A DNA stretch of 27,915 nt from a virus (taxonomy: Duplodnaviria > Heunggongvirae > Uroviricota > Caudoviricetes): the IMG/VR virus record IMGVR_UViG_641736226_000038; one strand, given 5' to 3'. Each line of letters begins with the position of its first letter. Positions within the stretch are counted from its first letter, which is position 1. This document shows positions 12,001 to 15,000 of this stretch, piece after piece. The position numbers were made by a program.

Positions 12001-15000
12001 GGGGGGGTTACGAAATTTTCGTAACCCCCATGGAAAGAAAAAAGGCGGTGCGGATCAGGTTGTTATTGTGATGACCTATAAACAAGCGCTTCGGGTTGCC
12101 GCTCGTGAATCTAAATCCGTCCGTCGTTCGCTGGTCGATCAACTGGAGTCAATGCAACAGCAACTGCAACAAAAAATCACCTCGAAACATTCGACTAACG
12201 GCCTTGAGGAATTCCGTAAAGCACGGGCGCTGAAAATGACCGTCGATACAATGAAAGACCTTTTCGGCTTCCTCCCCAACCTTGCCCCTGAAGCTAAACA
12301 AGTCGTTGCCGCCAGCCTGGTTAATCCCGTTGTAGGCGCTAACGTAATCCCGCTACCGATGATTAATGAACATTACTATTCGGCGTCAGAAGTTGGAGCA
12401 AAACTCAAAATATCCGCTAACAAGGTTGGTCGCATTGCCAATACCTACATGCTCAAAACCGAACAATACGGGAAATGGTTCATCGACAAATCCCCGTATT
12501 CGGATAAGCAGGTAGAAAGCTTCCGATACAATAATCGGGGAGTACGGAAGATTGAAGAAATCCTGGACGCGGAGAACAACGCAGAATTCGGAACCTGATA
12601 TCCTCCACTCTCCGACGCCGCCAGAATGACGGCGCGGTGGTTAAGCATGAGGCGAAATTTCTGCCGGGCGGTATTTTGTTGAGAGATGAGATACGTCAAC
12701 TTCTCTTTCCGCTTTTTCAAGGCTCCATGCCGTCTGGAGACGAATCCATGAAGACGGAGTTCCCCCCAGGACAGCAGCGAGACGAACAGCCATTTCAGGA
12801 GATATTGTCGCATTACCTGAAACCAGTCGCTGAACAGTGGAAGGCGCGACATCAAGCGCTCTTGCCAGTTCCCTGATTCCAATATTCTGATCTTCCAGAA
12901 TATCAGCAATAATTTCTCCAGGATGAGGGGGGGTAAACATCGCCATTAGTGGTAATCCTCGTAGTTAAACGAAGCGGATCTGGAGTTTTTCCCTGTAGCA
13001 CGGGCGAATTTTTTCAACGTTGCAAATGATGGCCTTATTTACACTCAATGGTTAATTCTTTCCTGTTAAATCCCTGTTCCTTTAAAATGTCTTTATATCC
13101 ATTTTTACATAGGGCATTGGCTTTATCATAGCATACTCCCCATGGTGTAGCGGCACCACAGGCAATGATGTACTGTTCCTTTTCATCTCCGCGATTTATT
13201 TTCGTAGTGGTAGTGCATCCTGATGTTGCCATGCAGAAAATTATCAAATAAAAGAACCTTGCTATGATGTTCATTATCGGATCTCTAATAGGTGCTGCAA
13301 GTGACACTATTCCCATACCTGGAGCAGTTTGTTAGTGTGGCACTTCATATGCCATGCAGATTAGTTCCGGGCGCGAATCTCAGAGCGAACCTGTGAAATG
13401 GAGTGCCCTTTGCCTAGGTTCTCACGAATAGCGTCGAGTGGCGGCGCGGCTGAGTGTATTAACCACGCTTCCATTGCTTTGTCGCGTTCATTCAGTGCAC
13501 GAAGCCCTTCACGAATAACTTCGCTTTCTGAAGCGTATGCACCGGAAGCCACACGGGCGCGCACCATGTCAGCCATTTCGTTGGTTAATGTAATGCTGAA
13601 TTGTTGGGTTGTACGCATGTTAAACCTCACTGAGTAGGATAGAACACTATTCGATGATAGCACGCCACTTGTTGACGACAACACATATCCGGGATTATAT
13701 TCTTCGCACGGTCGAGTTGACCGTCGGGATTCGAACCCCGGATAGAAACCGCGACAGAGACACGCCGCGAGCGTGTTTTTTATTGTCGTATGCACGCGCA
13801 CATCTGAATTATGGTGGGGCGTATAGGGGAGCTGAAAAGCTCGCCGGTTGGTTTCCCGGTAGTTCGAACCCTGTACGTCTCACCACCCGATGATTCGAAC
13901 CTAACGGTGGTGATAGTTTAGAAACCACTCGAGGGCGTCATAATGACAACTCAAGTTTCTGTTGAAACACTCTCCACGATTACTTACAAGCAGATCCCCG
14001 TTATCACTACCGAACTTTTGGCGCACCTTTACGGCACAGAAGCTATTCGTATTCGCCAGAATCACCACGAAAACAAAGGTCGTTTCATTGAGGAAAAACA
14101 CTTCTTCAAACTTGAAGGTGAAACTTTACGTGAGTTCAAGCACAGAGTAGCTTTTAACTACTCTGTGAAAATCGCCCGTAACGTTCGCTCCCTCATCCTC
14201 TGGACAGAACGCGGCGCAGCCCGTCACGCAAAAATGCTCGAAACCGATCGGGCGTGGGAAGTGTTCGAAAAACTGGAAGACTGCTATTTCAGTCAAAAAA
14301 TCCCAGAACAACTTCAGCTTCCAGAATCAACACTATCTATCAACTACCCTCTATCGTGGTTTTCAGAGCACCACCCCTACTCCATGATGAGCTATGTTGA
14401 TCGAAAAACTCTTAACCTGGACGTTTCTGTACTCTTCGACATGCCAAGCCCAACCATGCGTATCCTCAACGAACTACACAGCAAGGGCTATAACGTCGAT
14501 GCGGCTGTCGCTGAATTTAACGCCTTCAAACATCTGACGGAAGAAATGCGCCGCACGCTACAGGATATTTCAAGACTGTCAGATCGAAATTCCCGAAAAG
14601 GCTTCTCGTTAAGCCTGTAACTTCCCCTACCATCCCCGACATCCCGTCGGGGTTTTCATATCTGGAGACAAAAATTTGAAACAGATCGCTTTCTACAGGC
14701 GTTCTGGAAGGCCCGGTGCCTTCCGTGGGTTAAAAGAACGCGTCACCTGGATGATTCAGTCTCGTGGTCGTCCTGTTACTGGCAGTGAAATAGCAGAGAA
14801 ATTTGGTGTTTCACTTTGCGAGTTCAACAAGGTAGCTCGCGGCCTGACAAAGGGCAGTAAGGTTGTGAAAATAAAGGCTTCAGAACCATTCACCACAGAC
14901 ACCGGAATCGTTGATCGCTTTTTCTCCCTCGAATCAAATCCTCGTCGTGACACACCTCGCTCACGCAATGCCGTTCCTCCATTCAGTCGCAGAAGCCGTG

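Follow-up and report, generated by a model that had tools for sequence, protein, structure and literature searches.

The window analysed in this study is the 27,915-nucleotide stretch of virus record IMGVR_UViG_641736226_000038 (Caudoviricetes), and at positions 13672–13942, directly ahead of an antirepressor-family gene (ant), it contains a short region in which one motif resembling a tRNA T-arm recurs. The question raised by this locus is which of its RNAs is the repressor, which is the target, and what the recurring motif does. A first-pass annotation of the sequence had proposed a second c4-type antisense RNA and antirepressor module here, and this proposal was confirmed, as the region (hereafter module 2) is homologous to copy 1 of the same window (module 1) over its whole length, with 77% column identity. 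We consider it likely that the region is an RNA immunity module of the phage P1 immI type in a Stx2a prophage, in which C4 RNA blocks the translation of ant and a leader RNA competes for C4. The roles of the RNAs had to be reassigned. The 74-nucleotide (nt) RNA that had been taken for the c4-like antisense RNA matches the isrK leader and bears the target-type sites a1 and b1, and the segment 13782–13942, which had been read as the ant leader only, holds C4 itself. As the UUCGAA core of the module 2 allele is palindromic, the polarity of the sites was hidden from the first reading.

Identification of the C4 and leader RNAs

Related modules were gathered by two routes: searching with the antirepressor protein yielded 80 loci, and a DNA pattern taken from the conserved C4 segment yielded 120. 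A whole-module nhmmer profile then gave 159 modules on phage contigs, of which 88 were distinct and 87 could be parsed; this profile was used in place of covariance models from the two window copies, whose hairpins MAFFT had mis-registered. The analysis established the identity of the parts of the module, their structures and the three-way co-variation of its pairing sites.

The search with Rfam covariance models at their curated thresholds detected two RNA pairs in the window, namely isrK and C4, twice. At module 2, the C4 match (RF01695, 70.1 bits against a gathering score of 45) lies at 13807–13890. The ends of the mature RNA were placed by reference to the annotated 77-nt P1 c4, which runs from GGUGGGG to CCACC, and the junction between AU and GGUGGGG at the C4 5′ end is identical to the annotated P1 5′ end. 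The minimum-energy fold of 13813–13887 (−43.7 kcal/mol, z = −5.87, 87% of the ensemble) takes the canonical shape and leaves the loop of hairpin 2, the 3′ junction and the ACC tail unpaired. All three C4 helices co-vary, 19 base pairs showing compensatory changes among 35 relatives, and the 3′ tail is ACC in 82 of the 87 modules and GCC in 4.

The TTGACG-18-TATATT promoter and the 74-nt terminated RNA claimed in the first-pass annotation were both recovered, the latter as a predicted RNA at 13708–13781 with two hairpins, a terminator hairpin and six U. The TTGAC and TATATT hexamers are kept across the related modules and the upstream flanks vary. By the predicted ends, the promoter lies 7 nt upstream of the leader RNA start, and the C4 match 26 nt downstream of the leader RNA. 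The leader passed the isrK model RF01394 narrowly (53.0 bits, gathering score 50). Its plus-strand terminator at 13760–13781 was missed by the promoter/terminator scan; both the predicted fold and the isrK model show it. Around this terminator, the 6–8 nt just 5′ of it pair with the 6–8 nt just 3′ of the U-run in a clamp stem, which is found in the minimum-energy fold of the window and of 84 of the 87 related modules and is built from at least seven different complementary sequence pairs; the P1 sequence contains a corresponding pair, GGACA/UGUCC. Since the clamp stem brackets the terminator and the U-run, it can form only in read-through transcripts.

The perfect inverted repeat TGTTGACGACAACA, which overlaps the −35 hexamer, is not present in copy 1, and other sequences occupy that position in related modules; the repeat could be an operator. 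No C1 operator was annotated or recognisable at the module 2 promoter, where a systematic repressor/LexA operator search was not made.

The antirepressor gene that had been placed at 13943 was verified by its family matches (Pfam ORF6N, 1e-19; PHROG anti-repressor, 1.6e-122) and by its likeness to AnrP of Gifsy-1, with which the 134 N-terminal residues are 62% identical. Its start lies 55 nt past the predicted C4 3′ end. The N-terminal domains of this ORF6N protein and of the Phage_pRha protein encoded at 1994–2641 are unrelated, and the two proteins share their C-terminal 118 residues with 69% identity; this shared part belongs to PHROG 17980, a family of unknown function.

Pairing sites and their co-variation

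The sites are named here after P1 nomenclature, and the P1 sequence could be aligned with the window in successive blocks. The exact complements to C4 at module 2 extend over 7 nt at a1, 6 nt at b1, 7 nt at a2 and 7 nt at b2 (Table 1). Since a2 and the b sites were misaligned by MAFFT in a set of 35 sequences, the intermolecular pairs were assessed by extracting the sites from their flanks and by permutation statistics on the longest complement.

The 87 modules contain at least 19 alleles of the a site (counted in a′) and at least 33 of the b site (counted in b′), in 54 combinations, and in nearly every module a change at the upstream site is matched by changes in the C4 segment and at the downstream site. 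The mean longest exact complement within a module was 6.95 nt for a′:a1, 7.11 nt for a′:a2, 6.38 nt for b′:b1 and 7.90 nt for b′:b2, compared with 4.2–4.5 nt between modules of different alleles. For a′:a2, the cognate exact complement reached at least 7 nt in all 87 modules (non-cognate mean, 4.2 nt). When C4 was re-dealt among the 54 combinations, the summed complement was 972 ± 21 with a highest value of 1061 in 2000 permutations, against 1550 observed. The a1/a′ cores located by their flanks formed 20 distinct pairs, 16 of which are perfectly Watson–Crick paired, and each of core positions 3–7 is occupied by three or four Watson–Crick pair types. These data show that the three sites co-vary, and the motifs are RNA–RNA pairing sites, as the first-pass annotation had preferred over tRNA genes.

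Two further properties of the sites bear on their function. In 54 of the 87 modules the b2 site overlaps the Shine–Dalgarno sequence, and in another 23 the distance is at most 3 nt, together 77, which points to occlusion of the ribosome-binding site. The predicted leader:C4 duplex is stronger than the mRNA:C4 duplex in 83 of the 87; since both address sites of the mRNA are also present in the leader RNA, the latter should compete for C4.

The mRNA leader also contains a GGUGGUGA element, the reverse complement of the C4 3′ strand UCACCACC, which is present in all 87 modules with −7 to −17 kcal/mol against that strand. The two vary together, GGUGGCGA occurring with UCGCCACC, GCGGUGG with CCACCGC and, in P1, GGUAGCAGG with CCUGCCACC. 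RNAalifold also pairs the element with the start-codon region UCAUnAUG (13937–13945), and this modelling suggests that the element may act as a switch linking C4 folding or excision to ant translation.

Relation of the motifs to tRNA

The unit that recurs in the window is the 8-mer TTCGAACC, found three times on the plus strand (13730, 13863 and 13894) within a span of 172 nt; the 14-mer GGGATTCGAACCCC, which had been described as the recurring motif, occurs only once, at 13727–13740. By chance, 0.92 copies of the 8-mer are expected on both strands of the 27.9-kb window, and three or more copies were found in 9 of 100 shuffles, while the clustering of three copies within 172 nt has a probability of about 1e-5 by our own Poisson estimate. 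The hairpin that had been drawn between the two downstream copies does not appear in the predicted fold, where they are not paired together and the copy at 13863 lies in the unpaired C4 junction.

The motifs could also be regarded as remnants or mimics of tRNA T-arms, derived from a tRNA-like element or a degraded tRNA gene cluster, since GUUCGAACCC resembles the T-loop consensus GGUUCGAAUCC, a genuine tRNA-Arg gene lies 6.5 kb off, and C4 is, by P1 homology, probably a substrate of RNase P. We give this explanation practically no weight. A check for tRNA genes such as the first-pass annotation had called for was negative, neither ARAGORN nor the Rfam tRNA model detecting a tRNA in 13700–13910 even at E ≤ 1, and the Rfam tRNA model gave no match at E ≤ 1 in 13600–14000. 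In homologous modules, moreover, at least 19 other sequences occupy the three positions and always vary together, and mimicry of T-arms is thus not a property of the element. As TTCGAAC is one of many a-site alleles, its T-loop likeness and its palindromy are accidental to this allele. The idea that tRNA mimicry through UUCGAA drives recognition by RNase P was dropped, the motif being only one allele.

Comparison with known systems

Citron and Schuster are reported to have found, in 1990 and 1992, that the c4 antisense RNA of P1 and P7 immI controls icd-ant. The facts on P1 used here come largely from its curated genome record and from secondary citations. The P1 genome record annotates the promoter P1c4, a1, b1, the 77-nt c4, a2 and b2, followed by icd and ant, and describes a2 and b2 as sites of translational repression. 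Module 2 has the same order, with the promoter, a1, b1, a terminator-like hairpin with the clamp stem, C4, a2, and b2 at the ribosome-binding site, followed by the first gene of the antirepressor operon. The two C4 RNAs score alike (68.8 bits in P1, 70.1 bits in module 2), and the sequence blocks UUAUGGUGGGGCG, AACCCUG and CCACC are common to both. They differ in that the module 2 leader passes the gathering score of isrK and not that of c4-a1b1, and the P1 leader the reverse; in the cargo, which is an ORF6N protein at module 2 and Ant1/Ant2 in P1; and in icd, which in P1 stands between C4 and ant and transmits the repression. The heteroimmunity of P1 and P7 rests on allele-specific pairing.

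The closest relative with experiments is the isrK-orf45 (STnc1160)-anrP locus of Gifsy-1 (Hershko-Shalev et al. 2016, PMC4825925). As in module 2, its isrK and C4 matches lie 25 nt apart, with the same GGUGGUGA element at the same spacing; this pair of matches identifies the orf45/STnc1160 region as a C4-family RNA. Its alleles (a, UUGGCGU; b, AUCACCG) differ from those of module 2, and the locus adjoins the late-gene antiterminator Q, whereas module 2 adjoins int/att. In the published model, the C4 region is a translated open reading frame (ORF) and IsrK an activator; our comparative data favour an RNA-only reading.

The seqA-CI-seqC region of satellite phage P4 contains the same Rfam pair in the same order (isrK 60.8 bits, C4 74.9 bits), and the relationship of P4 CI and seqA to C4 and isrK has already been stated in print. 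As is predicted for C4 at module 2, the processed RNA pairs with sites on both its sides. The two matches are separated by 107 nt in P4 and by 25 nt at module 2, and in P4 transcription of the replication operon is reported to terminate prematurely, the translation of an antirepressor not being the point of control. Module 2 is therefore a new, uncharacterised member of the P1 c4 / Gifsy-1 IsrK / P4 CI family, and its mechanism is not new. The phage-plasmid N15 is said to use a comparable arrangement: according to work attributed to Ravin and co-workers in 1999, its anti-immunity CA RNA, a small processed RNA from the leader of the antirepressor operon, reportedly controls the operon through a leader terminator.

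Proposed mechanism and alternative explanations

Based on this evidence, transcription would start near 13708 from a constitutive-looking promoter, and many transcripts would stop at the terminator 13760–13781, giving a 74-nt IsrK-like RNA that exposes a1 in the loop of a hairpin and b1 in a single-stranded linker. Read-through transcripts would carry C4, which would be cut out at 13813–13887, its 5′ end being generated by RNase P as in P1. For the P1 c4, Hartmann and colleagues are said to have reported in 1995 excision from a longer precursor, RNase P generating the 5′ end. The two unpaired segments of C4 would then bind the ant leader at a2 and b2, and as b2 abuts the ribosome-binding site, the 30S subunit would be excluded, no antirepressor would be made, and the prophage repressor would stay active. 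The leader RNA would set the threshold of the switch as a competitor for C4, acting as a decoy in trans or in cis on the read-through transcript itself. We infer C4 processing, repression of translation and the decoy function by homology, the role of the leader RNA being less certain than the repression of ant by C4.

Mutational data on Gifsy-1 can be placed on this scheme. Translation of anrP rose more than 100-fold when IsrK was provided in trans, an effect that required G28 and G31 (PMC4825925); by sequence comparison, both residues are located in the a1 core. The substitutions C159U and C162U, which derepressed expression about 100- to 200-fold (PMC4825925), were placed in a′ by the same comparison. 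Double mutants of a1 and a′ did not return to baseline (224 and 327 units versus 4; PMC4825925), and they are expected to stay derepressed if a′ must also pair with a2 for repression.

Several points weigh against this interpretation. The exact ends of C4 and its processing by RNase P are carried over from P1, and the RNAs of this prophage are predicted from the sequence. No icd-like ORF lies between C4 and ant (13887–13943), where P1 has one. The Rfam model c4-a1b1 (RF03163), which does match P1 (51.0 bits) and Gifsy-1 (48.1 bits), gave no match to module 2 in 13600–14000 even at E ≤ 1; functional equivalents of a1 and b1 are present at module 2 despite this. In Gifsy-1, basal expression was higher with either of the a1 substitutions G28A and G31A on its own (PMC4825925), an outcome not foreseen if the leader RNA is purely a decoy, and constitutive expression of orf45/STnc1160, the C4-equivalent region, strengthened the growth arrest induced by IsrK, which misfits a picture of repression by C4 and titration by IsrK. 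Finally, the duplex energy of C4 of copy 2 is −16.3 kcal/mol with its cognate and −11.8 kcal/mol with the non-cognate partner, a moderate separation of co-resident modules.

Among the alternatives, the first-pass assignment, with the 74-nt RNA (13708–13781) as the antisense repressor and 13782–13942 as a passive mRNA leader, appears very unlikely. It has in its favour that the 74-nt RNA does pair inside 13782–13942, through a1:a′ and b1:b′, and that, UUCGAA being palindromic, a1 of module 2 could pair with a2 over 6 bp. However, the partner at 13849–13868 belongs to a structured segment of 75 nt for which the C4 model gives 70 bits and which can be aligned to the c4 annotated in P1, and non-palindromic a1 and a2 share their core and are not complementary (UUAGGAC in copy 1). 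As the a1 and a2 cores are alike in such alleles, the leader RNA cannot generally bind the site next to the ribosome-binding site. More serious, if still unlikely, is the model published for Gifsy-1, by which a 36-codon ORF (13811–13921) must be translated for ant to be translated in turn, the leader RNA being a trans activator that refolds the mRNA and free C4 being incidental. It is supported by direct experiments on the homologous locus, which used SPA-tagged orf45, inserted stop codons and mutants of the structure switch, and the AUG in the C4 5′ strand is kept in 86 of the 87 modules. This AUG, however, belongs to the conserved closing stem of C4, and the ORF stops after 14–40 codons in various frames or runs into the next gene, again in differing frames. 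Codon periodicity is absent from the 25 modules that are open in frame (0.655/0.670/0.632 at positions 1/2/3, compared with 0.50/0.42/1.04 for the ant coding sequence), and the model leaves a2 and b2 unused, though they co-vary as strongly as a1 and b1.

Control of the P4 type, in which C4 acts mainly on transcription, pairs with a1/b1 (seqA-like) and a2/b2 (seqC-like) on the nascent RNA and causes premature termination at 13760–13781, leaving ant untranscribed, seems rather unlikely. P4 has the same isrK and C4 pair and its CI RNA is reported to terminate transcription through seqA and seqC pairing; in Gifsy-1, IsrK in trans raised an anrP transcriptional fusion 8-fold; and such an effect of C4 on the leader terminator could account for the raised basal expression of the a1 mutants. 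On the other hand, the terminator hairpin forms alone, with a1 and b1 already unpaired and no competing antiterminator helix in the predicted fold, the terminator scan showed no terminator-like hairpin between C4 and the ATG, and the position of b2 on or beside the Shine–Dalgarno sequence in 77 of the 87 modules speaks for the ribosome-binding site as the target. Termination of the P4 type could also operate alongside translational repression rather than instead of it, and we keep both P4-type attenuation and orf45 coupling as partial, non-exclusive rivals.

Extending the preferred interpretation, in which C4 represses ant translation, we put forward tentatively, and with more doubt than belief, that the module is a self-contained three-RNA circuit (terminated decoy, processed repressor and mRNA target) addressed by two short codes that re-assort freely, in which GGUGGUGA could couple C4 folding or excision to ant translation, with the corollary that the Pfam Ash family is an RNA module read as protein. 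If this were true, one prophage could carry several mutually blind antirepressor switches.

Protein-coding potential and the Ash domain

That the region encodes a protein, either the 79-amino-acid (aa) ORF 13654–13893, hypothetical in one phage record, or an Ash-type domain, is extremely unlikely. PHANOTATE called this ORF in phage phi346 and translations of related modules match Pfam Phage_ASH; against this, the ORF has no Pfam match at E ≤ 10 and no RefSeq gene, it would begin upstream of the promoter and cross the terminator, and the RNA models and co-variation account for the conservation, which shows no codon periodicity. The family concerned, PF10554 (Phage_ASH, Ash protein family), matches the translations of three tandem modules with 46–68 bits (viral contig L109, 9289–11266, minus strand), that of copy 1 (window 1856–1993) with 25.3 bits against a threshold of 26, and the old "cI protein" ORF of P4 (L205, 8168–8584, minus strand) with 59.7 bits; the Rfam C4 match falls within this last ORF. 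Immunity of P4 is reportedly conferred by an RNA, as Forti and colleagues are said to have found in 1995, and the Gifsy-1 literature agrees.

Because coding periodicity is lacking over C4, the Ash "domain" is most simply explained as a conceptual translation of the RNA module. "Rha/Ash" proteins with an Ash domain of no assigned function are listed in a 2022 survey of Stx phages, and this domain is probably an RNA switch annotated as protein; if so, the "Rha/Ash" proteins are Rha genes with an RNA switch mis-annotated as coding. The overlap of C4 with protein annotation is partly known already, as one paper notes P4 CI "within a Bro network gene".

Significance of the two modules

Antirepressors can induce prophages independently of the classical RecA route, and the induction of a Stx2a prophage releases Shiga toxin. 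Prophages of the type PA2 / VT2phi_272 / phi346, beside tRNA-Arg CCU, have two such switches with different RNA addresses, and neither appears to have been studied previously. The words "antisense" and "small RNA" are absent from a paper on Stx-phage antirepressors (PMC3064807), and the module is unmentioned in papers on the prophage small RNAs of enterohaemorrhagic E. coli (Tree 2014; the Pas small RNA preprint). The principle known from P1, P4 and Gifsy-1 is unchanged; the practical value lies in a correct RNA annotation, in natural allele swaps for specificity tests and in a warning on "Ash domain" annotations.

Genomic setting

About 1.4 kb around module 2 are 100% identical to the Stx2a-converting phages PA2, VT2phi_272 and vB_EcoP_phi346, and likewise to prophages of E. 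coli O157:H7 chromosomes. The integrase gene and the tRNA-Arg(CCU) gene in the window indicate that it represents the int-proximal end of a Stx2a prophage plus flanking host DNA. In the public records inspected, no RNA gene is annotated at module 2, and RefSeq leaves the region empty. No toxin genes are annotated beside the ParD-family antitoxin and HTH/HigA-like genes upstream, and the Rfam scan of the window gave no C4 or isrK match ahead of the gene at about 11862–12598.

Table 1. Positions of the RNA elements, pairing sites and genes in the window.
Feature	Position	Strand	Remarks
Inverted repeat TGTTGACGACAACA	13670–13683		TGTTG-ACGA-CAACA; overlaps −35 hexamer of module 2 promoter
Sigma-70-like promoter	13672–13701	+	TTGACG-18-TATATT; 10 of 12 consensus positions matched
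IsrK-type leader RNA	13708–13781	+	74 nt; Rfam isrK RF01394; equivalent of P1 a1/b1 and P4 seqA
Leader hairpin 1	13708–13724	+	Predicted fold; compensatory changes in relatives
Leader hairpin 2	13725–13740	+	Predicted fold
a1	13730–13736	+	UUCGAAC; 8-nt loop of leader hairpin 2; complementary to C4 a′
b1	13745–13750	+	GAAACC; single-stranded linker of leader; complementary to C4 b′ loop
Clamp stem	13751–13756 with 13784–13789	+	GCGACA/UGUCGU; brackets terminator hairpin and U-run
Leader intrinsic terminator	Stem 13760–13776, U-run 13776–13781	+	G+C-rich hairpin and six U; single-stranded linker 5′ of terminator
C4 antisense RNA	13807–13890	+	Rfam RF01695, full model length
C4 predicted mature RNA	13813–13887	+	16-bp closing stem, two hairpins, unpaired junction, 3′ ACC tail
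C4 hairpin 1	13829–13842	+	
C4 hairpin 2	13843–13860	+	
b′	13849–13855	+	UGGUUUC; loop of C4 hairpin 2; pairs with b1 and b2
C4 unpaired junction	13861–13868	+	
a′	13862–13868	+	GUUCGAA; unpaired C4 junction; pairs with a1 and a2; first T-arm-like motif of the first-pass annotation
a2	13894–13900	+	UUCGAAC; ant mRNA leader, 6 nt past predicted C4 3′ end; position of annotated P1 a2
GGUGGUGA element	13906–13913	+	Exact reverse complement of C4 3′ strand UCACCACC (13880–13887)
b2	13921–13927	+	GAAACCA; ends 3 nt before Shine–Dalgarno, 15 nt before ATG
Shine–Dalgarno	13931–13935	+	GAGGG
Start codon of ant	13943	+	ATG
ant, antirepressor family	13943–14620	+	225 aa; N-terminal ORF6N domain
BsuBI/PstI-type restriction endonuclease gene	285–1238		Prophage, just upstream of module 1
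Copy 1 promoter	1716–1745		TTGACT-18-TATATT
Copy 1 leader	1752–1827		isrK match
Copy 1 C4	1852–1939		Rfam match; C4 proper about 1858–1936
Copy 1 a1, b1	1777–1783, 1792–1800		
Copy 1 b′, a′	1896–1904, 1911–1917		
Copy 1 a2, b2	1944–1950, 1974–1982		
Copy 1 controlled gene	1994–2641		Rha-domain protein
Gene named anti-repressor in phage phi346	About 11862–12598		Frameshifted in RefSeq
HTH/HigA-like gene	12641–12946	minus	Upstream of module 2
ParD-family antitoxin gene	13361–13618	minus	Upstream of module 2
Integrase gene	15998–17536	minus	
tRNA-Arg(CCU)	20375–20449		Sole tRNA in window (ARAGORN, Rfam); 6.5 kb from module 2

Module 1 and loci with several modules

Module 1 carries the alleles UUAGGAC (a) and CAAUCAAGG (b), and its b2 overlaps the Shine–Dalgarno sequence AGGAGG. 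An ATG in the 5′ strand of its C4 (1856) is in frame with the Rha-domain gene, which gives rise to a spurious ORF of 261 aa. Two or three modules occur together in 11 loci; among the 13 co-resident pairs there, no b allele was shared and 2 pairs had the common a allele in both modules, which is consistent with co-resident modules being independent switches.

Some phage contigs hold tandem arrays of two or three complete modules at intervals of about 650 bp, with a Rha-domain gene of about 115–120 aa behind every module, as at L109 (9646–11254) and also at L098, L153, L158, L185 and L201; at L109, the long ORFs across each module meet at ATGA overlaps. The copies of module 1 in the window (1777–1950) and in phage phi346 (L001, 1075–1394) differ from each other by the same 3-nt change at all three a sites and are otherwise about 97% identical, with a1/a2 of UUAGGAC versus UUCUCAC and a′ of GUCCUAA versus GUGAGAA. 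Natural chimeras were also found: at L020 (1201–1520) and L099 (5178–5453) the a1 allele differs from that of a′ and a2, and at L023 (1203–1520) the b2 allele differs from that of b′ and b1. These three may be recombinants caught between specificities.

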